NCBI RefSeq assembly: GCF_000981785.2
Contig: NZ_CP026286.1
Coordinates: 1 to 6,987 of the forward strand
Source: Microcystis aeruginosa NIES-2549
GTDB lineage: Bacteria; Cyanobacteriota; Cyanobacteriia; Cyanobacteriales; Microcystaceae
Direction of reading: 5' to 3'
DNA length: 6,987 nucleotides
The notes beneath the pieces were generated by a model. The model was not told the origin of the DNA, ran no database searches, and saw only the letters and a list, made by a program, of their open reading frames with translations. Positions 1 to 6,987 of this stretch are shown piece after piece (within the stretch, counting starts at the first letter, position 1; each line of letters opens with the position of its first letter). Made by a program: the position numbers and the translations under genes.

Positions 1-215
1 GGTGACAAAGGTGACTCGCTATTAAGTAAGTTGTCACCTTTTAAGTTTTCCGTACTGGACGGGTGATTCTCACTCAGTGGGTTAGTAGTTTTTACAGCAA
101 AGTGATTTTTTGAGTCACCTTTGTCACCTTTTAAATTAAAATCCTTATCTGGTAAGGGTTCTAGTGGGGTGACTATGCTGTCACCTTTAGTCACCTTTGA
201 GTCACCTTTGTCACC
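1..215. repeat. GGTGAC/GTCACC(TTT) hexamer-nonamer array, left part (10 exact copies).
   Basis: GGTGAC at 1, 10 and 168. GTCACC at 33, 114, 123, 180, 190, 201 and 210. The run 180/190/201/210 is four tandem GTCACCTTT units spaced 9-11 bp. Inverted-repeat pairs: AAAGGTGAC (7-15) with GTCACCTTT (33-41), and GGTGAC-tatgct-GTCACC (168-185). Confidence 0.9.
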
Positions 216-689
216 TTTTAAGGTTTTGAACTCGATCGAGCGAGAGGTTTTCCTGACTTCCCCGTAACCTTGATCAGCCAATTCCTTGAATATTTCAGCT
301 ATTCGGGTAGTAGGGAAGTCTTGACGGGTTTTGGTGTTAAAAGCCTTTTTCCGTGCGTTATTAGGGCTAATCCAATCGGTAGCTACCGATAGCAGCCTTG
401 CATAGGTGCTAGGTAAGTCATCCGATAACTTCCCATACATCCCCCTCACTTGATTAATAAAAAAGCTTACTAACTCAATAGCCGCGTTAACGATTTCCTT
501 ACCAATCTCTATCGATGGTGTAATACCGTGAAATAGGGAGTTAATGAGATGAAGGTTTAAAGCCAAGCGTCCGATCAGCCCTCTCGCTTTAATTAGCACA
601 TTTCTCATTGCCGGGCGCTGTTCACCATCGGCTAATGATTTAAGTCTGTTAGCAGCCTTAAGGAATCCGTGCCGGTCTCGATAAATCAT
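1..689 (-). CDS. C-terminal continuation of the primase-helicase (DUF3987-type C-terminal region plus KGD-repeat tail). It is in the +1 frame relative to 658..2697 and is partial, running off the left edge.
   Basis: Hand translation of the minus strand (codons 689-687, 686-684 ... 5-3) gives MIYRDRHGFLKAANRLKSLADGEQRPAMRNVLIKARGLIGRLALNLHLINSLFHGITPSIEIGKEIVNAAIELVSFFINQVRGMYGKLSDDLPSTYARLLSVATDWISPNNARKKAFNTKTRQDFPTTRIAEIFKELADQGYGEVRKTSRSIEFKTLKGDKGDSKVTKGDSIVTPLEPLPDKDFNLKGDKGDSKNHFAVKTTNPLSENHPSSTENLKGDNLLNSESPLS. There is no stop in these 229 codons. The frame is open from 731 and the first ATG is at 689. It is absent from the supplied ORF track, presumably because it has no stop inside the window. 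Confidence 0.6.
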   Translation of the reverse strand, partial: MIYRDRHGFLKAANRLKSLADGEQRPAMRNVLIKARGLIGRLALNLHLINSLFHGITPSIEIGKEIVNAAIELVSFFINQVRGMYGKLSDDLPSTYARLLSVATDWISPNNARKKAFNTKTRQDFPTTRIAEIFKELADQGYGEVRKTSRSIEFKTLKGDKGDSKVTKGDSIVTPLEPLPDKDFNLKGDKGDSKNHFAVKTTNPLSENHPSSTENLKGDNLLNSESPLS

Positions 690-2613
690 AAGTAGCCACT
701 GGCAAGCGATCGAAATGTCGATATAAATCTGTCAGCATCGGTGTTAAATCCGGGTAAGCCGCGTCAATATCAAGATCAAGGGTTGAGGGGGGAAGCTGAC
801 AAAAAATGAATCGCGCCCATTGGCCGCTGCTATCTTCCTTATCGCCTAACAGTTTCTCTAGCACCCCGGGTTGAATCGTGCCATAAATGCTTAAAAGAAT
901 TTTCCGACATACTAACGTTTTGTCGGGGTCGGCCCGGAGTGTAATCGGTGGGGTCCCATCAAAATATTCTAGAATGTCCTCGCTGTCAGACCCACGGCCT
1001 CCCCGGTACTGGTTAGCACTCTTGAATAAACCGGCGATTTCATCTCGGAAAAGTAACATCCCCTTATCTTGGCTATTAGCTGCATAACGCGCTATCCCCT
1101 CACCAGTTCCCCCGCTAAAATACCTGATCCGCCGGGTAGGTTTGGTCGGTGGTCCATCGGGGAATGAATCGCTTAAATCATCTTTGTTCTTTGATTTTTT
1201 GAGCATCTCATAGTTGGCTAGAGAGGACTTATGCTCACTTAGCTTCGCTTCATAGTCCTGATCATCCAATTCGATTAGTGACTTAAGAGGATCGGCAATC
1301 ATGGCACGGCCGATAATGCTTTTTCCTTCCCCCGATAACGCGACTATGGCTGCGTACAAGTTGGGGGGAACCTTCCAGTTGGTTTGAGGGTATAGGCTTA
1401 AGGCAGTGTCCGGGTGAAGGGTTGATGATAAGCCACTGAGTAACGCGGTTAAATAAGCCTCACCCCTCAATCCTGTTAGTCTGGCATGGTGATTAATAGC
1501 GTTAGCTAATTTTTCAGGGAGTACCTTAGTAAGATCAAGCCGTTGGCTGTCAGCTTTTAGGATATTTTCGAGGTCGCTGTAAAGGTCATCCTTGTCAAGG
1601 TTTTGGTCATTTTCTTGTAACCTCTCTTTATATATAGAGGTTACTTGCTGTTGTGTTAGATTGAATTCCCTTGCAATCGAAGCGAGTTTTATTTCACGAT
1701 TGGAACCGGTGAGGTTCTCAGTTATCAGACTATCGATAACTTCCCCTAGTTTGTCGGTTTCGAGTGGTTTAGGGTTGAATTTGGGATGACTGACTACATT
1801 GTTAGGTTTATCCGTTTTTTGCGGTTTAAGAGGCTTTTTCTCACCGATTCCCTTGATAATGTCTTCTTTGTTGGCCCCTTCATCTATCCAATCTTTCAGA
1901 TCAGCCCCCCTTGATTCTGGCAAGTGGTTCCATAAGGGGGAATCTGGGAAACAGTAAAGCCATTGGGCATTGGGGAAGTCCTTAGCTATAGCCTCGCAGT
2001 GTTTCAAGCCGGGAACATCTCGATCCGGACATAAAATCACGCTGGCCCCTTCTAAGTCTTTACTATCTGTCTCTCGCCATTTTCCCGAACCGGCTAGGTT
2101 ACAGGTTGCCGGCAGTCCCAATGACCATAGAAGATCGGCCTTACCCTCACCCTCAACGATAAAAATACTTTCCCCGTTGGCGATCGCTTGCTTGACTCCC
2201 TTGTATCGATAAATAGGTATATTTTCCCGCTTAATTTCGCCTAACCCCTTAACCCATTGTTTACCGTCCCAATGCTGCTGATAAAAGTCTTTTTTGCCGT
2301 TACCGTCATCTTTTCTTACTACTCTGATTAAGGGATTACCATCGCGATCAGGATAGTAATAATGGGTAGTTTTAGCCGGGCGTGGGGGTTTAGCCCATGT
2401 TTCCTTTTCCTTAATAGGCGCGTAATAGGAGTGACCTTCACTATCGGCCCCATCGGTTTTATACCATCCCGGTGCGGGTTCATGGTTACGCTTGCATACT
2501 GATAAATCGCCGATCGAGTAACACCAGTCAGGTTTCCCACAGTGGGGGCATGGGTTATCTTTGGTGACAGTGACTAGACTTTTCCCGTTGGTTTCGCTAT
2601 ACTTGCTGTACAT
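658..2613 (-). CDS. Replication protein: N-terminal zinc finger, Toprim (DnaG-like) primase and DUF3987-type helicase/NTPase, ended by a stop at 658-660. The track ORF starts at 2697; the ATG at 2613 is preferred.
   Basis: Zn motif: CPHCGKPDWCYSIGDLSVCKR. Toprim: IFIVEGEGKADLL ... ILCPDRDVPGLKH (conserved E and DxD). DUF3987-like: LPEKLANAI..., Walker-A-like ALSGEGKS, LLFRDEIAGLF...YFDG. The ATG at 2611-2613 is preceded by TAAGGAcattactaca, an AAGGA Shine-Dalgarno that overlaps the stop of the upstream ORF. The 2697 start would overlap that ORF by 71 nt and would translate through a terminator hairpin. Confidence 0.9.
   Translation of the reverse strand: MYSKYSETNGKSLVTVTKDNPCPHCGKPDWCYSIGDLSVCKRNHEPAPGWYKTDGADSEGHSYYAPIKEKETWAKPPRPAKTTHYYYPDRDGNPLIRVVRKDDGNGKKDFYQQHWDGKQWVKGLGEIKRENIPIYRYKGVKQAIANGESIFIVEGEGKADLLWSLGLPATCNLAGSGKWRETDSKDLEGASVILCPDRDVPGLKHCEAIAKDFPNAQWLYCFPDSPLWNHLPESRGADLKDWIDEGANKEDIIKGIGEKKPLKPQKTDKPNNVVSHPKFNPKPLETDKLGEVIDSLITENLTGSNREIKLASIAREFNLTQQQVTSIYKERLQENDQNLDKDDLYSDLENILKADSQRLDLTKVLPEKLANAINHHARLTGLRGEAYLTALLSGLSSTLHPDTALSLYPQTNWKVPPNLYAAIVALSGEGKSIIGRAMIADPLKSLIELDDQDYEAKLSEHKSSLANYEMLKKSKNKDDLSDSFPDGPPTKPTRRIRYFSGGTGEGIARYAANSQDKGMLLFRDEIAGLFKSANQYRGGRGSDSEDILEYFDGTPPITLRADPDKTLVCRKILLSIYGTIQPGVLEKLLGDKEDSSGQWARFIFCQLPPSTLDLDIDAAYPDLTPMLTDLYRHFDRLPVATYDLSRPARIP
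2575..2603 (+). promoter_or_regulatory. Candidate sigma70-type promoter (TAGACT-N17-TATACT) that could drive a ~70-nt RNA antisense to the rep start.
   Basis: TAGACT lies at 2575-2580 and TATACT at 2598-2603, with a 17-nt spacer. The terminator hairpin begins about 40 nt downstream of the predicted start site. This rests on motif matching only. Confidence 0.3.
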
Positions 2614-2626
2614 TGTAGTAATGTCC

Positions 2627-3064
2627 TTAATTTTCAAAAAGTACGAAACCACAGCGATCGTTAGTCGCTGTGGTTTTTTGGTTGTTTTGAGAGGCATTGC
2701 CGGGGATACCGACGGTATCCCCCCGATACAGATTTAAAGCGGCGATCGCATCCTGATCAAGATGCCCGGCACCTTCTAAAATTTCTAAGGCTTTTGTTAA
2801 TTCCCCTTGGGCGATCGAGCGCCTCAACCCGTCCGGTCTTTTCTTTTTATGAGTGAGTTTTGCGAAGATTCCACAGTCCCGGCACTGATAGAGAGACCTA
2901 ATCGGGCCAGACTCGATTAATTCCCCTAAATTTTCGCACCTAGGGCATTTTACCGATGATTCTAGATTGTGATATGATTTATCACAATGACCATCGATTG
3001 ATAAATCTTTTTTGTCGGTTGAGCAAACTTGATGAAGTTTGCTAAAGTTTGATAGATTGTACAT
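2627..3064 (-). CDS. Zinc-ribbon protein of unknown function, first gene of the rep transcription unit.
   Basis: 145-aa ORF with an ATG start. It has CPRC...(17 aa)...CRDC plus upstream C/H residues (CSTD, HCDKSYH). Its last ~17 codons are encoded by the 2646-2676 hairpin. Its TAA stop lies 13 nt before the rep ATG at 2613. Confidence 0.6.
   Translation of the reverse strand: MYNLSNFSKLHQVCSTDKKDLSIDGHCDKSYHNLESSVKCPRCENLGELIESGPIRSLYQCRDCGIFAKLTHKKKRPDGLRRSIAQGELTKALEILEGAGHLDQDAIAALNLYRGDTVGIPGNASQNNQKTTATNDRCGFVLFEN
2646..2689 (+). terminator. Strong stem-loop with a T-run on the plus strand (an intrinsic terminator facing into the rep leader). It is weaker but also terminator-like on the minus strand.
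   Basis: aaaccacagcga (2646-2657) pairs perfectly with tcgctgtggttt (2665-2676), with a 7-nt loop tcgttag. On the plus strand it is followed by ttttttggttgtttt. On the minus strand the stem is followed by tttcgtacttttt. Confidence 0.65.
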
Positions 3065-3201
3065 AAGTTTATGAATTTGTTTTCCCAGGAACGCTAGTAA
3101 CGTTATCTGGGGATTTTTATATTTTATACTAACCGTATGGGAAAAGTTTATAAGTGCAAAATCCCTGCTATGGTAGTTTGATCATAAAGGGATTCCTATC
3201 A

Positions 3202-3232
3202 AGTCAAAACCGCAATTGTTTCGGTTTTGACT
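3202..3232. repeat. Perfect 11-bp-stem inverted repeat in the intergenic region upstream of the rep unit.
   Basis: agtcaaaaccg (3202-3212) and cggttttgact (3222-3232) are separated by a 9-nt loop. No T-run follows on either strand, so it is not a canonical terminator. Confidence 0.8.
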
Positions 3233-3276
3233 GATACTTGATAACTGATAACCGTTAACTGGAATTAACCGCTAAG

Positions 3277-3501
3277 TTAGTCGCTAAACTCGTTATCGAA
3301 TAACTCCCTTAGCACTTCATTTGCTCGGTTTTGAAACCTTTTAGCCTTTTCCTCGTTGCCAAACTTTGCTACGGGTAGGGCTAAAAAGCCCAAAAACCCC
3401 TGTTTAAACTGCCATTCAACGTCATACAATCGATCGCCATTTTTGTTTTGGGTAAAGTACCGTGTATCAGTCAGAATTGCCGCAATTTCGTGTTTTTCCA
3501 T
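3277..3501 (-). CDS. Small hypothetical protein (74 aa from the ATG at 3501; the track ORF begins at a TTG at 3540).
   Basis: AGGAG sits 7 nt upstream of the ATG at 3499-3501 (minus strand reads aggagtaaaaagATG). The TTG-extended version would be translated from the intercistronic hairpin. The sequence MEKHEIAAILTDTRYFTQNKNGDRLYDVEWQFKQGF... matches no family I recognise. Confidence 0.5.
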   Translation of the reverse strand: MEKHEIAAILTDTRYFTQNKNGDRLYDVEWQFKQGFLGFLALPVAKFGNEEKAKRFQNRANEVLRELFDNEFSD

Positions 3502-3545: not shown

Positions 3546-4055
3546 TTAGATGTTGAATCGCTTCTGAGTAGCGATAAACAAGCTTGTAGCGACTTGCCGG
3601 CGATCATCCGGGGTAATATTCTCTACCCGTTGGTCAACGGTTTTTAAGCAGAAATTGAACAGATCAGCCATATCCCCAACATATTGCGCGATTTCTCGCT
3701 TCTGATTAGGCGATAAGGTTGATTGGTCATTTTGGGAAGGTTTCTCGCTGGTTTCCTCGATTTTATGGTTAAAATTGTGAACGGGTTTTACCGGAACCGG
3801 TTCCACTGGTAGGGGTTGACCTAAACTGACTAAATTAGGGTCTTCTACTAGCGAATATTTACCCTTATTGTCAAGGGTTAAGGTCAAGCGAGCGTTCTTA
3901 ATCACATACTTTTGAGAGTAATCATCGTCACCACCGCGCCACACGGTCACTTTTTCCCCGTTATCACGTCTTACCGCGTCAATTACGGTTCTCTCGCCGT
4001 ATTTAGTGTTAACGCGCCGGGCGCGGTCTGTGGCCATTGCTTCGATTAGTTGCAT
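3546..4055 (-). CDS. Hypothetical protein with a possible N-terminal OB-fold-like domain, a Pro-rich linker and a helical C-terminal domain.
   Basis: 169-aa ORF with an ATG start; AAGGA lies 13 nt upstream. The N-terminus RARRVNTKYGERTVIDAVRRDNGEKVTVWRGGDD...ARLTLTLDNKGKYSLVE has the alternating beta pattern typical of OB folds. This is by eye only; no family is recognised. Confidence 0.55.
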   Translation of the reverse strand: MQLIEAMATDRARRVNTKYGERTVIDAVRRDNGEKVTVWRGGDDDYSQKYVIKNARLTLTLDNKGKYSLVEDPNLVSLGQPLPVEPVPVKPVHNFNHKIEETSEKPSQNDQSTLSPNQKREIAQYVGDMADLFNFCLKTVDQRVENITPDDRRQVATSLFIATQKRFNI

Positions 4056-4139
4056 AATAGAGATATCCTTTTTGGATGTTAGGCGATCGCTTTTTGATTG
4101 GAAGTCTGGGAGCGGTCGCTTTTGGTTTATATGTATATA

Positions 4140-4288
4140 TTATCCGATACTCTATCAGATTGCAATACCTATGCGATTAAACTATCTGATAAGTAAACGA
4201 TAATAATATCAGATATTCTAATAGGATATTTATCGGAGTTAGTGATAGTATGAATGTAAACCCGATAATATATCTGATATAGTTATTT
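4140..4288. promoter_or_regulatory. AT-rich divergent promoter/operator region with four TATC-N-GAT(A) pseudo-palindromes and GATAAT(A)ATATC boxes.
   Basis: CTATCAGAT at 4152-4160, CTATCTGAT at 4182-4190, ATATCAGATAT at 4206-4216, and ATATCTGATAT at 4270-4280 (the reverse complement of the third site). GATAATAATATCA at 4199-4211 and GATAATATATC at 4264-4274. The region lies between the divergent starts at 4055 (-) and 4289 (+). Confidence 0.6.
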
Positions 4289-4600
4289 ATGCCTAAAATT
4301 AACGATAACGTTGTCCGGGTTGACTTCCGGTGTCCGATCGCAATTTACCAAGCGATCGAGAAATTAGCAGAGGAAAATGGGCAGCCGATCCACCACATAA
4401 GTGGAAAAGTACAGATAAGCAGTACCATCATTGACTTATTAAAAACAGGGTTAGCAATTCACGCCCCGGACTCCCTACCCCAATCGAATGGGGGGAATTT
4501 AGCCGATAAGCTATCAGAAAAAATCGATGACGCGATCGAGGCTAAAATGAACGCGGCGATCGCTTCCCTTCGCGCTGAATTACTAACACCTAACACCTAA
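4289..4600 (+). CDS. Ribbon-helix-helix (CopG/Arc/MetJ-like) DNA-binding protein with a C-terminal helical tail.
   Basis: VVRVDFRCPIAIYQAIEKLAEENG...ISSTIIDLLKTGL fits a beta-strand, helix, helix layout. The gene sits next to palindromic operators and is followed by a terminator. Confidence 0.6.
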   Translation: MPKINDNVVRVDFRCPIAIYQAIEKLAEENGQPIHHISGKVQISSTIIDLLKTGLAIHAPDSLPQSNGGNLADKLSEKIDDAIEAKMNAAIASLRAELLTPNT

Positions 4601-4677: not shown

Positions 4678-5226
4678 ATGAAGCGCGATCGCAACGGACA
4701 AGCCAAAATCCTTACTGACAGCGAAGTATCAGCTATATTTAGCCTTTTAAGTGCTAGAGATAGGGCTATTTTCGCTATCTGTCTTTATGGCGCGTGTAGA
4801 ATCTCTGAGGCCTTGTCGATTAGAGCGGGGGATATAGCCAATGGCGTAATCATTCTCAGGAAAAATTCGACTAAAGGAAAAAAGGGAACGCGATCGCTAC
4901 CTATTTCTCCCAATCTCGAAAAAATTCTCAATGATTACATCGACTCGATCGCTTTCCCCGGTGACTTCCTTTTTCCCGGTAGGGACGGCACTAAACCCTT
5001 AACCACTGCCTACGCTGATCTGGTATTAAGGGAATCTTGCCAAAAATTGGGACTTAAGGGTATATCGACTCACTCATTCCGTAGGACCGCGTTAACCCGT
5101 ATGCACTTAGCAGGGGTCCCACTGCGAACTATTCAGCGAATTAGTGGGCATTCATCCCTAGCGGCCCTATCGGTTTATCTGGAAGTGAGTAACCAAAACC
5201 TTATCGATGCTGTGGGATTGATTTAA
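4678..5226 (+). CDS. Tyrosine recombinase (phage-integrase family), catalytic domain only (182 aa).
   Basis: Catalytic residues are readable: R in GACRISEAL, K in STKGKKGTRSLPI, HxxR in THSFRRT, then GHSSLAALSVYLE (H...Y). An in-frame TGA at 4624 rules out a longer N-terminus, so there is no core-binding domain. Confidence 0.88.
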   Translation: MKRDRNGQAKILTDSEVSAIFSLLSARDRAIFAICLYGACRISEALSIRAGDIANGVIILRKNSTKGKKGTRSLPISPNLEKILNDYIDSIAFPGDFLFPGRDGTKPLTTAYADLVLRESCQKLGLKGISTHSFRRTALTRMHLAGVPLRTIQRISGHSSLAALSVYLEVSNQNLIDAVGLI

Positions 5227-5259
5227 TGCGATCAAGTGCCAATTCTCAAAGTGTCACAG

Positions 5260-5315
5260 TTAGATGGTTACATCTAAACTAATTAGATGATAATAATATC
5301 ATCCAAGATTAGATG
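5260..5315. promoter_or_regulatory. Upstream region of the 288-aa gene, with TTAGATG boxes and two inverted repeats.
   Basis: TTAGATG-gtta-CATCTAA at 5260-5277. TTAGATG at 5283-5289 and 5309-5315. GATGATA-ataa-TATCATC at 5287-5304, which contains the shared box GATAATAATATCA (5289-5301). Confidence 0.6.
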
Positions 5316-5638
5316 AGATGCAATGAGTAAAGTAATTTCATTTTCAATCAGCGATCGCTATCTCGATAAGCTTCGCTCCCTGTACCCAGCGCTGACTGAC
5401 AATCTGGCAGTCAAGCAATTTGTCACGGACGGGTTAGATTCACGCTTAGGCAATAGCTTAGATGGTAGCTTAGATGACGGGTTAGATGATAGGGTTAAAA
5501 CCCTTATAGAATCATGGGTAGATGGTTTATTAGAAGTGAGGTTAGATGCTTCTGTGGGAAAGTTGATCACTTCCTTGAGTGAGAGAATGGCAAGGCTAGA
5601 GGCAAGATTAGATGATAATTTAGATGGTAGTTTAGATG
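5260..5638 (+). repeat. TTAGATG heptamer array: 10 direct exact copies plus 1 inverted copy, with degenerate copies as well.
   Basis: Exact plus-strand copies start at 5260, 5283, 5309, 5458, 5470, 5482, 5542, 5608, 5620 and 5632. The inverted copy is at 5271-5277. Variants: TTAGATT 5434, GTAGATG 5518, TTAGAAG 5529. Two triplets of copies show 12-bp spacing. Confidence 0.9.
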
Positions 5639-6189
5639 ATATGGAAAGACTGCTAAGGTTACAGCGAGAGGCTTCGATCGCTTCCCCCCTTCCCCCTTCC
5701 CCTTCCCCTTCCCTTCCCCCCGATGAACCGGTTCAACCGGCTATCAGTGAACCGGATCAACCGGCGATCGAGGACTCGGAAAAAAAGATTGTGGACTCGC
5801 TAGATACTTTAATCGGTTCCCCAATCGGAATAGATGAGTCTGGTAGTGAACCGGACACGGACGCGATCGAATCCTTGACCAGTGAATCTGACTCATCTAT
5901 TGAGGGTGAGGACGCGATCGAAACCGTCACCCCGGAAGTTTCACCGTCACCACCGGACCAACCGGCGATCGGAACCGTTCCGGGTGACTCAATTGACACG
6001 GAACCGGATAAGGGCATGAATCCCAATCAAGCCCATGAGTACCTAATATCTAAGGGGATAAAAGATATTAGCTATTACTATCTGAATAAATGGGCTAAAG
6101 ATAAAGAAGGGCTGATACCATGGCGGGGCAAAAATGCGCGAAAACACCTAACACTGAAAGACGGCCTTTACTTCCCCACAACCGATTAA
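5323..6189 (+). CDS. Modular acidic protein: RHH-like N-terminus, LD(G/D) repeat region, Pro/Ser linker, acidic repeats and a small basic C-terminal domain.
   Basis: The N-terminus KVISFSISDRYLDKLRSLYP resembles an RHH strand plus helix. Repeats: SLDGSLDDGLDD and RLDDNLDGSLDD. Linker: PLPPSPSPSLPP. PDQPAI occurs twice (a third, EPVQPAI, is degenerate) and DAIE(S/T)(L/V)T occurs twice. C-terminus: NQAHEYLISKGIKDISYYYLNKWAKDKEGLIPWRGKNARKH. The low-complexity content lowers confidence in the exact product. Confidence 0.6.
   Translation: MSKVISFSISDRYLDKLRSLYPALTDNLAVKQFVTDGLDSRLGNSLDGSLDDGLDDRVKTLIESWVDGLLEVRLDASVGKLITSLSERMARLEARLDDNLDGSLDDMERLLRLQREASIASPLPPSPSPSLPPDEPVQPAISEPDQPAIEDSEKKIVDSLDTLIGSPIGIDESGSEPDTDAIESLTSESDSSIEGEDAIETVTPEVSPSPPDQPAIGTVPGDSIDTEPDKGMNPNQAHEYLISKGIKDISYYYLNKWAKDKEGLIPWRGKNARKHLTLKDGLYFPTTD
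5681..5721 (+). repeat. 41-nt uninterrupted polypyrimidine (C/T only) tract inside the 288-aa CDS.
   Basis: cttccccccttcccccttccccttccccttcccttcccccc, encoding SPLPPSPSPSLPP. Confidence 0.9.
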
Positions 6190-6201: not shown

Positions 6202-6423
6202 ATGACTGAGTACACCTATAAGGATTACAAGCCCTATTTTGTGAAACGTCCCAAAAAACCCGGCTATTTCACCCTTAGAGAAATCAGAGCCATGGCAGTT
6301 CCGGGGTGGCCGCAATCGATCGAAGGCCTGAGAAAAAAAGCACTTAGGGAGGGTTGGCCCCGGTTGGGGCGCCGTCCGTCTAAAGGGGGAGCCTTTGAGT
6401 ACCGTGCCGGGTTGCCCGATTAA
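6202..6423 (+). CDS. Stand-alone Mu-type winged-helix DNA-binding domain protein (similar to the MuA / Mu repressor N-terminal domain).
   Basis: YFTLREIRAMAVPGWPQSIEGLRKKALREGWPRLGRRPSKGGAFEYRAGLP aligns by eye with MuA residues ~4-53 (WVSPKECANLPGLPKTSAGVIYVAKKQGWQNRTRAGVKGGKAIEYNANSLP). Shared positions are PG.P.S..G....A...GW....R...KGG...EY....LP. Confidence 0.65.
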   Translation: MTEYTYKDYKPYFVKRPKKPGYFTLREIRAMAVPGWPQSIEGLRKKALREGWPRLGRRPSKGGAFEYRAGLPD

Positions 6424-6650: not shown

Positions 6651-6987
6651 TTAGGCTTTTTTCTTTTTCTCGCGCTTGGGGCCGGGAGTGTCCGGCGTGA
6701 CTTCATCTAAGGCAACCGTAAAGGGGGGATTTTCCTGATACCAATCTTGGATGGTGATTAAATCACCATCGACACTAATCACCCCATGGGCGCGGCCATT
6801 TTTGTTGTAAATACACTCACCCCCCGGTTTAAGGCTGTCAGTGTCACTTACCGGGCGATCGGAGTCGGTTTCATCATGGGGTGACTCAAGGGTGACTGGG
6901 GTGACTAAGGGTGACTGAGTATTTTCAGGGTAGTCACCTTTTGTAAAGCCTTGCTGTGATTGAGTTTCACTATCTAAAGGTGACTGG
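6651..6987 (-). CDS. 3' part of a minus-strand ORF entering from the right edge: a repeat-rich linker, a small beta-rich C-terminal domain and a Lys tail. It is probably the distal end of the Rep tail if the molecule is circular.
   Basis: Hand translation gives ...QSPLDSETQSQQGFTKGDYPENTQSPLVTPVTLESPHDETDSDRPVSDTDSLKPGGECIYNKNGRAHGVISVDGDLITIQDWYQENPPFTVALDEVTPDTPGPKREKKKKA, with the stop TAA at 6651-6653. It is open to position 6987 and is not in the supplied track. Confidence 0.65.
   Translation of the reverse strand, partial: QSPLDSETQSQQGFTKGDYPENTQSPLVTPVTLESPHDETDSDRPVSDTDSLKPGGECIYNKNGRAHGVISVDGDLITIQDWYQENPPFTVALDEVTPDTPGPKREKKKKA
6880..6987. repeat. GGTGAC/GTCACC array, right part (6 exact copies).
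   Basis: GGTGAC at 6880, 6891, 6900, 6910 and 6979. GTCACC at 6933. The 10-bp inverted repeat AGTCACCTTT (6932-6941) pairs with AAAGGTGACT (6976-6985). Confidence 0.9.

Follow-up and report, generated by a model that had tools for sequence, protein, structure and literature searches.

Layout of the plasmid and its heptamer array

The window, by which we mean the whole stretch of DNA analysed, is the complete 6,987-bp circular plasmid of Microcystis aeruginosa NIES-2549. The plasmid carries the following genes.

658-2697, minus strand: Rep, of the DUF3987 primase-helicase type (Pfam).
Minus strand: three small ORFs, function not assigned.
Same plasmid: a 103-aa ORF.
4678-5226: tyrosine recombinase of 182 aa, catalytic domain alone (Pfam).
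5323-6189, plus strand: 288-aa gene myaer_p00035, a member of an uncharacterised family.
6202-6423, plus strand: 73-aa gene with a Mu-type HTH (PF02316, E = 3.9e-5).

The product of ORF 5323-6189 shares 100% identity with the hypothetical plasmid protein myaer_p00035 and has no Pfam match. The PF02316 (HTH_Tnp_Mu_1) match scores 24.4 bits, against a gathering cut-off of 23.3. Note that this match is to the downstream 73-aa ORF, not to the 288-aa protein of the NIES-2549 plasmid. In several homologs of the 288-aa protein, PF02316 is found at the C-terminus. Pfam gave no match to ParA or ParM among the plasmid's eight ORFs, and neither was found among the neighbouring genes at homologous loci. 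We found no paper on the genes of this plasmid.

The word TTAGATG, or its complement CATCTAA, occurs 13 times in the plasmid. In 200 dinucleotide-preserving shuffles the mean was 0.91 and the maximum was 5. Eleven of the 13 copies are between 5260 and 5638, at 5260+, 5271-, 5283+, 5309+, 5458+, 5470+, 5482+, 5542+, 5608+, 5620+ and 5632+. The remaining two are at 3546+ and 6704-. A preliminary description of this DNA had reported the same cluster, within 379 bp, against about 0.05 copies expected by chance. Our recount agrees (379 bp x 2 strands / 4^7 = 0.046). A full-text literature search for TTAGATG returned primers and unrelated sequences only. The array is arranged as follows.

5260-5277: palindrome TTAGATG-gtta-CATCTAA, made of sites 1 and 2, which are head to head with their starts 11 bp apart.
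5267-5294, plus strand: promoter-like site from a consensus scan; -35 GTTACA (5267-5272), 16-nt spacer, -10 GATAAT (5289-5294).
5283-5289, plus strand: site 3, which shares its final base with the start of the -10-like hexamer.
5309-5315, plus strand: site 4, 14 nt ahead of the start codon, within a presumed 5' UTR or ribosome-binding region.
5434-5548, plus strand: first intragenic block, with sites at 5434, 5458, 5470, 5482, 5518, 5530 and 5542, in frame as L-D/E or V-D.
5608-5638, plus strand: second intragenic block, three TTAGATG at 12-bp spacing (LDD, LDG, LDD).

Four copies, three direct and one inverted, are noncoding and lie upstream of the ATG. An in-frame TGA at 5314-5316 also precedes the start codon. 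The other seven are inside the coding sequence, in frame 0, and read LDG, LDD, LDD, LDA, LDD, LDG and LDD. That Leu is TTA and Asp is GAT at all seven follows from the exact, in-frame, heptamer. Two triplets are spaced by exactly 12 bp, and a comparison of the spacers confirms a constant word between neighbouring codons that differ both in their letters and in what they encode. The factual statements of the preliminary description are thus all borne out. We also found copies with one mismatch: TTAGATT at 5434 (LDS), GTAGATG at 5518 (VDG) and TTAGAAG at 5530 (LEV). When these are counted, all sites from 5434 to 5542 fall in a single 12-bp register, and 5518, 5530 and 5542 make up a third triplet. 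Of the alternative reading frames of TTAGATG, one contains TAG and the other gives x-Arg-Cys/Trp/stop. Hence, the word can be embedded in frame 0 only, and we rejected other frames for the intragenic copies.

Upstream of the gene, the palindrome flanks and overlaps the -35-like hexamer, and site 3 overlaps the -10-like hexamer. Note that the scan found one promoter-like site, where shuffles predict 1.3, so such a site is present at background frequency. A -10-like TATAAT, GATAAT or TATGAT directly after a heptamer recurs in homologs. A second word, GGTGAC, had been put forward as a parallel case of a word within coding DNA. This is supported: 16 of its 22 copies are within a 355-codon open frame that spans the plasmid junction, and the GGTGAC array is associated with the Rep C-terminal frame.

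The word in unrelated repeats and in homologous loci

Exact 12-bp spacing had been taken as a sign of binding sites. We scanned 185,579 reference genomes, together with IMG/VR, for the pattern TTAGATG-N5-TTAGATG-N5-TTAGATG. The matches listed include more than 240 unrelated loci, in bacteria, archaea and giant viruses, and in 200 of 240 the pattern is in frame as Leu-Asp. Such generic arrays are acidic 12-nt coding tandem repeats. Among the matches listed they consist mostly of whole-unit copies and almost never have inverted copies; in the plasmid, by contrast, the spacers vary. Since in-phase heptamers are common in unrelated repeats, the exact 12-bp spacing is no evidence of a binding site, and the earlier argument is weak. 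Hence, the case rests on the noncoding copies and on synonymous constraint.

The scan also gives some weight to an alternative. This is that the array is an ordinary coding tandem repeat, generated by recent slippage of a 12-nt xLDx unit, with promoter copies that arose by chance or hitch-hiking and no function at the level of DNA. Consistent with this, repeat number differs among homologs, which have between 9 and 35 LD per protein, and some distant homologs have near-perfect 24-nt units repeated seven times. Because copy number is variable, slippage must be active, and it adds to codon uniformity within tandem blocks. However, like units, drifting codons and no noncoding copies, which are the marks of a simple slippage repeat, are not what we see at this locus.

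The comparison with homologs draws on 287 database relatives of the 288-aa protein. Nearly all are from Microcystis, on contigs of 6-8 kb. DNA for about 40 related loci was obtained from a metagenome scan and contig look-ups. Megablast of the entire plasmid against PLSDB gave no match, and tblastn against PLSDB gave two short N-terminal matches only, both to Microcystis plasmids. A search of genome contigs for related loci found none.

Noncoding copies are a consistent property of the family. An exact TTAGATG is present no more than 90 bp upstream of the ATG in 32 of the 33 distinct homolog genes tabulated; upstream of the gene at locus L035 there are only TTAGAT and CTAGATG variants. Close homologs share the layout of the plasmid, with the palindrome (kept in all of them), another copy beside a -10-like hexamer and a further one immediately ahead of the start codon. 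In all but six of the distinct upstream sequences, TTAGATG (CTAGATG in two cases) starts 9-10 nt before the ATG. The six exceptions have TTAGATTAAATG in place of the pre-ATG TTAGATG. Some loci have far longer noncoding arrays. At L021 there are 11 YTAGATR sites in 160 noncoding bp, in both orientations, with spacings of 11, 12, 9, 11, 13, 13, 13, 13 and 13. At L010 there are seven noncoding upstream YTAGATR sites. Long noncoding arrays, in both orientations, cannot be explained by a coding repeat. Across 41 loci, the density of the word is 13.2 per kb in the promoter and 5' coding region compared with 0.55 per kb elsewhere. We also considered an explanation at the level of RNA. This was rejected because conserved copies precede the promoter-like site and also occur on the other strand.

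Leu-Asp hexamers, pooled over distinct genes, are TTAGAT in 314 cases, CTAGAT in 110 and others in 48. Thus, YTAGAT accounts for 424 of 472 LD pairs, and 454 of the 472 are followed by a purine. Elsewhere, the homolog genes spread their Leu evenly over all six codons. Outside the repeats, the family uses TTA for 105 of 516 Leu and GAT for 355 of 487 Asp. From this codon use, the naive probability of seven consecutive TTA-GAT is about 1.6e-6, assuming independent sites. Tandem duplication would violate that assumption and, hence, the comparative tests weigh more than this number. The preliminary description had regarded its idea as wrong should homologs mix their Leu and Asp codons and lack upstream copies. 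The idea survives the codon counts and the 32 genes with upstream copies.

We assessed synonymous change at conserved columns after aligning the codons of 12 distinct close homologs. Only one of 16 LD-repeat columns had changed synonymously, whereas the other conserved columns had done so in 55 of 79 cases (Fisher p = 2.6e-6). Restricting the comparison to other conserved Leu or Asp columns gave a similar picture (1/16 versus 19/22, p = 1e-6). In the first block (5434-5548), TTA-GAT is fixed in 12 of 12 homologs. This extends to the isolated RLDA site at 5542, which is not part of a tandem and yet is TTA-GAT in 12 of 12, so it is as fixed as the tandem sites. This counts against slippage. At the protein's first Leu-Asp (YLDK), TTAGAT never occurs. 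The word is constant, and the spacer codons around it are variable both as DNA and as residues.

The most divergent family member found (protein P0129, locus L281) has three promoter copies, and six of its eight LD are encoded by YTAGATG. The remaining DNA of the gene has diverged, and there is no Mu-type HTH nearby. Hence, the word has survived even the deepest divergence seen in this family, which also argues against slippage. We conclude, from these sequence comparisons, that the word is conserved and very probably selected as DNA. The core idea of the preliminary description, that a DNA word is selected as an array of cis-acting sites laid over an acidic Leu-Asp repeat, is thus upheld by the noncoding copies and the synonymous constraint.

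The 288-aa protein and readings of the array

We modelled the 288-aa protein as a monomer, with AlphaFold2 (AF2), using 120 homologs (mean pLDDT 66.5). Its parts are as follows.

5323-5442, plus strand: N-terminal domain, aa 1-40, near-invariant, MSKVISFSISDRYLDKLRSLYP.LTDNLA.KQF.TD.LD; candidate heptamer reader.
5404-5682, plus strand: long predicted alpha-helix, aa 28-120, which carries the LDxx repeats (AF2 model).
5683-6012, plus strand: linker predicted to be disordered, aa 121-230, with much Pro, Glu and Asp, differing from homolog to homolog in both length and sequence.
6013-6186, plus strand: predicted C-terminal domain of three helices and a beta-hairpin, aa 231-288, winged-HTH-like (AF2, pLDDT ~90).

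In the model, residues 1-10 are a low-confidence coil (pLDDT 49), followed by helices at 11-20, 22-25 and then 28-120. The pLDDT of the long helix is 59-74 over the LDxx repeats and 81-92 over aa 71-120. At the DNA level, there are tandem repeats at 5681-5769. The N-terminal domain family is tiny: a set of 1.84 billion proteins contains just 24 clusters of it at 50% identity.

The preliminary description called the N-terminus ribbon-helix-helix-like. The pattern K-V-I-S-F-S-I-S fits the strand of such a fold, and so does the N-terminal order of this pattern and then two helices fit the fold as a whole. Aligning the N-terminal alignment with CopG, using hhalign, recovered the ribbon-helix-helix register at a statistically weak level (P = 0.011, probability 3.7%). 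Using the full-length family alignment, hhalign found nothing with CopG, omega or NikR. A Pfam scan of aa 1-48 at E <= 10 and a search of PHROGs gave no hit, and profile searches of the PDB found no ribbon-helix-helix. Neither the N-terminal domain nor the full-length protein had a significant match when Foldseek was run against the PDB. In none of these searches did the N-terminal domain match a DNA-binding family. The likeness therefore lacks profile or structural support and, because the domain searches gave no significant match, we treat a ribbon-helix-helix fold as possible.

The near-invariant N-terminal 40 residues are the sole part of the protein that always accompanies the word. The C-terminal domain, the Mu-type HTH partner, the type of Rep and integrase adjacency all vary among loci. 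At least four unrelated HTH types occupy the C-terminal position among homologs. In a covariation comparison, the word and the putative recognition strand were both invariant throughout the family, L281 included.

In our proposed reading, the heptamers would form an autoregulatory operator that runs on into the gene as an array, with the N-terminal domain of the gene's own product as the binder. Judging from sequence, we put the probability of this at roughly 55%. The cis-acting, protein-binding, word would be YTAGATR, usually TTAGATG. Sites that bracket the -35, abut the -10 and precede the start codon would form the operator of the 288-aa gene. The array would then carry on, at 12-bp spacing, into the coding sequence and over its first ~320 bp. 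As this period is four codons, and only frame 0 would be tolerable (Leu-Asp followed by G, D, A, E or V), the DNA array would appear in the protein as LDxx repeats in the long helix. We infer that the likeliest reader is the protein's own N-terminal 40 residues, possibly a ribbon-helix-helix, acting as a dimer, and that binding would repress the promoter. The result might be a multi-site nucleoprotein complex, of ~380 bp, that stops transcription and also helps to maintain the plasmid, whether by pairing, by tethering or as a centromere. A second contact could come from the long coiled coil, the disordered linker and the C-terminal HTH, which is interchangeable.

The word might instead be read by another factor: the Mu-type HTH protein or a host regulator of the LexA type. 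In most loci, a Mu-type HTH gene is adjacent to the 288-aa gene as an operon partner (L001, L002, L004-6, L009 and L010) or, in distant homologs, fused to it as the C-terminal domain (L016, L026, L030 and L035), which suggests a functional link with the 288-aa gene. However, no Mu-type HTH is present at L003, L037-L040 or L281, where the heptamer layout is nonetheless complete. For Synechocystis LexA, CTA-N9-CTA direct repeats with a 12-bp period have been proposed (PMC3091678), and the YTA-N9-YTA period of the array agrees with this report. Yet the LexA motif specifies three bases and seven are conserved here. Furthermore, the word is confined to one gene per element, as the densities given above illustrate, and this is expected for a self-encoded reader. 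We therefore consider another reader unlikely.

Alternatively, the intragenic array could be a replication origin, an iteron set or a copy-control handcuffing site, located in the gene of an origin-binding protein. There is precedent, since origins and arrays of binding sites inside initiator genes are documented for repC, pAD1, pSX267 and pAMbeta1 (PMC3155836). The GGTGAC word of the plasmid likewise lies inside coding sequence, in the Rep C-terminal frame. However, the GC profile of the plasmid revealed no AT-rich unwinding segment beside the heptamer array: GC content is 0.40-0.44 over 5251-5700 and drops to its lowest values (0.34) at 3001-3300 and 4051-4350, which are AT-rich. The separate primase-helicase-type Rep, with its GGTGAC array, is also a more obvious origin. 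In addition, Rep at homologous loci is either DUF3987 or a CyRepA-like DUF3854 type (PMC10079941), and elements with the different Rep keep the same cassette. These observations make an origin quite improbable.

A further possibility is that the protein is a Xis/Cox-like architectural factor for the upstream tyrosine recombinase. The repeats would then be arm-type sites, at a locus for recombination or dimer resolution, and promoter repression would be an additional outcome. Proteins of the Cox and Xis type attach to phased direct repeats, and they can also act as repressors. In keeping with such a role, the 288-aa gene is directly downstream of the tyrosine recombinase gene in the NIES-2549 plasmid and at L037, and the C-terminal domains are small winged-HTH-like modules, some of Mu type. 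Integrase adjacency is not conserved, however: at L039 the integrase is ~2 kb away, on the other strand, and at L281 none is nearby. The recombinase, at 182 aa, is a catalytic domain alone, and a core-type inverted repeat with a 6-8-bp spacer was not seen beside the array. We are just as sceptical of this role as of an origin.

Finally, tandem duplication of a 12-nt unit plus chance promoter copies, the alternative named in the preliminary description, is largely refuted by the noncoding arrays and the synonymous constraint, and has very little chance of being correct.

Related systems and significance

Several known systems resemble the operator array that we propose. The omega protein (ParB-pSM) of pSM19035 recognises a 7-bp asymmetric word, in direct and inverted orientation, over promoters, and its sites serve as both operator and centromere (PMC9499535). 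Similarly, the Microcystis word has 7 bp, is found in both orientations and overlaps a promoter-like site. Omega is the closest functional analogue of the proposed array. There are clear differences. Omega heptads are contiguous, with a 7-bp period, and at least four, free of gaps, are needed, while the period of the Microcystis array is 11-13 bp. Sites for omega are noncoding and the Microcystis word is also in coding DNA. Omega has 71 aa and works with the delta ParA ATPase, whereas no NTPase gene was found on the Microcystis plasmid. Lastly, a ribbon-helix-helix fold is only a possibility for the Microcystis protein.

Type Ib and type II partition loci offer another comparison. In ParR/parC, of R1 and pSK41, and in ParG/parH, short repeats about one helical turn apart flank the par promoter. 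A small dimeric protein binds these repeats cooperatively, and autoregulates, and a ParM or ParA partner from the same operon is needed. As in these loci, an array of short repeats overlaps the promoter-like site of the operon. Unlike them, a partner NTPase was not found here; par sites, moreover, lie outside coding sequence. With no NTPase gene found on the plasmid, a canonical centromere role is unsupported, and we rejected membership of that class.

For the proposed dual use of DNA, the closest analogue is the initiator gene that contains its own origin. The lambda O gene, with ori-lambda, is an example of an origin within an initiator gene. As in such genes, the Microcystis sites are inside the coding sequence of what, at the sequence level, is the presumed binder. 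Unlike lambda O, RepA_N plasmids such as pAD1 and the repC of repABC plasmids, a separate Rep is present, the array begins in the promoter and an AT-rich neighbour was not found. A further difference from internal-origin genes is that the sites impose a visible four-residue amino-acid repeat. In Bacillus subtilis, the centromere site parS lies inside the coding sequence of spo0J (parB), the gene of its binder. There, the site is a single 16-bp palindrome, with no protein repeat, bound by an HTH ParB that works with ParA, whereas the Microcystis sites form an array.

Generic acidic (xLDx)n repeats can have the identical pattern, with at least three TTAGATG at 12 bp, in frame as Leu-Asp. They occur in unrelated proteins, repeat whole units and have no conserved noncoding or inverted copies, which the Microcystis locus does have. 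By analogy, the Microcystis case would join omega-like heptads with sites inside the binder's gene, in an orphan family, and add an imposed four-residue repeat.

A more far-reaching proposal is tentative, and we doubt it more than we believe it. The LDxx repeats may exist because of the DNA: an operator array could have spread from the promoter into the gene of its binder, leaving the central helix largely as passenger translation. The ~380-bp complex might then be an NTPase-free maintenance device, with the N-terminal domain on the array and the rest of the protein tethering the host nucleoid or a second plasmid copy. Taken with GGTGAC in the Rep frame, Microcystis mini-plasmids might routinely write cis-elements into coding sequence.

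If confirmed, the array would be an unusually clean natural case of dual coding, in which the gene for the likely reader has its codons, and its amino-acid repeat, dictated by the binding sites. Synonymous-site conservation can flag cis-elements hidden within coding repeats, where in-phase repeats alone are misleading. The cassette marks an uncharacterised family that is apparently restricted to small plasmids and integrated elements of Microcystis. Note that Microcystis is a bloom-forming, toxic, cyanobacterium with few genetic tools. Once known, sequences that control plasmid maintenance and expression would aid the building of vectors. They would also help to explain how Microcystis mini-plasmids persist without recognisable partition genes.

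Sequences flanking and within the 288-aa gene

Besides the TTAGATG array at the promoter and 5' coding region of the 288-aa gene, the window has several other features. These are listed below.

4135-4290: AT-rich intergenic region (GC about 0.34) between the divergent 169-aa (minus strand) and 103-aa (plus strand) genes
4678-5226: gene for a tyrosine recombinase of 182 aa, with a Phage_integrase catalytic domain
5233-5259: conserved block of about 25 bp, AGTGCCAATTCTCAAAGTGTCACAG, immediately 5' of the TTAGATG palindrome
5681-5769: linker repeats of the CCCCTT type, coding for Pro-Ser-Pro
6202-6423: Mu-type HTH gene (73 aa), downstream of the 288-aa gene

The conserved block is near base-for-base identical in all close homologs, and contains an AGTGYCA direct repeat with 15-bp spacing. 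It may be the site for a second protein or, alternatively, part of the promoter. In the intergenic region, TATCAGAT/ATCTGATA is present four times, with copies in either orientation, alongside several inverted repeats. The segment could be either a third operator or the stretch where the origin unwinds. The adjacent 103-aa gene product has weak Arc-like matches in PHROG (E = 0.0095).

In most close homologs, the Mu-type HTH gene comes after the 288-aa gene. In the distant homologs (loci L016, L026, L030 and L035) the same HTH is a C-terminal domain fused to the 288-aa gene. This gene fusion hints that the two proteins work together. The linker of the 288-aa protein, a predicted disordered segment, varies widely in length across homologs. 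In addition to the Pro-Ser-Pro repeats, the DNA at 5681-5769 has a 24-bp tandem duplication, TGAACCGG[A/T]TCAACCGGC[G/T]ATCAG. The 182-aa recombinase lacks the SAM-like core-binding domain at its N-terminus. Its counterparts in related elements are 319 aa long and include this domain as well as the catalytic one. The plasmid-borne protein may be a truncated form or a minimal recombinase.

A separate observation concerns matches, otherwise unrelated, from a scan for three TTAGATG copies at 12-bp spacing (loci L044, L051, L079, L095, L105 and L120). A C-terminal H-x-LD-x-x-LDG-x-LDE motif is common to several unrelated proteins of ~360 aa, whose sources include Clostridia and other phyla. The underlying DNA is TTAGATG at 12-bp spacing, with variable spacers. 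The shared element looks like a conserved motif of the protein and not like a tandem repeat.

GGTGAC and a probable Rep reading frame

A second DNA word, GGTGAC, sits inside coding sequence on the plasmid. The word occurs 22 times, where 1.8 copies are expected, and 16 of these are within one minus-strand frame that is apparent when the plasmid is read as circular.

1-215 and 6880-6984: GGTGAC copies
731..1 then 6987..6654, minus strand: 355-codon open frame, over the window junction

The copies in this frame translate as KGD or SP/VT repeats. Its reading frame differs from that of the 679-aa Rep ORF, whose end it overlaps. Since Rep proteins of related elements are about 1,000 aa long, the 355-codon frame probably encodes the C-terminal portion of Rep. 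Rep is then probably split by a frameshift near 660-730, either a genuine one or an artefact of sequencing.

Genomic setting and host signature

One family member, L037, is on a 38 kb contig (JADBVT010000170.1), accompanied by its integrase and by a Rep-like gene of 1,061 aa. Neighbouring genes are of chromosome or secondary-metabolite type (Trp halogenase, methyltransferase, MatE). This setting points either to integration of the copy or to carriage of the cassette on a larger plasmid. The NIES-2549 plasmid itself carries the cyanobacterial HIP1 palindrome, GCGATCGC, at 8 sites in the window (for example at 4083, 5351 and 6641), compared to 0.04 expected. This excess is consistent with the plasmid having resided in Microcystis for a long time.
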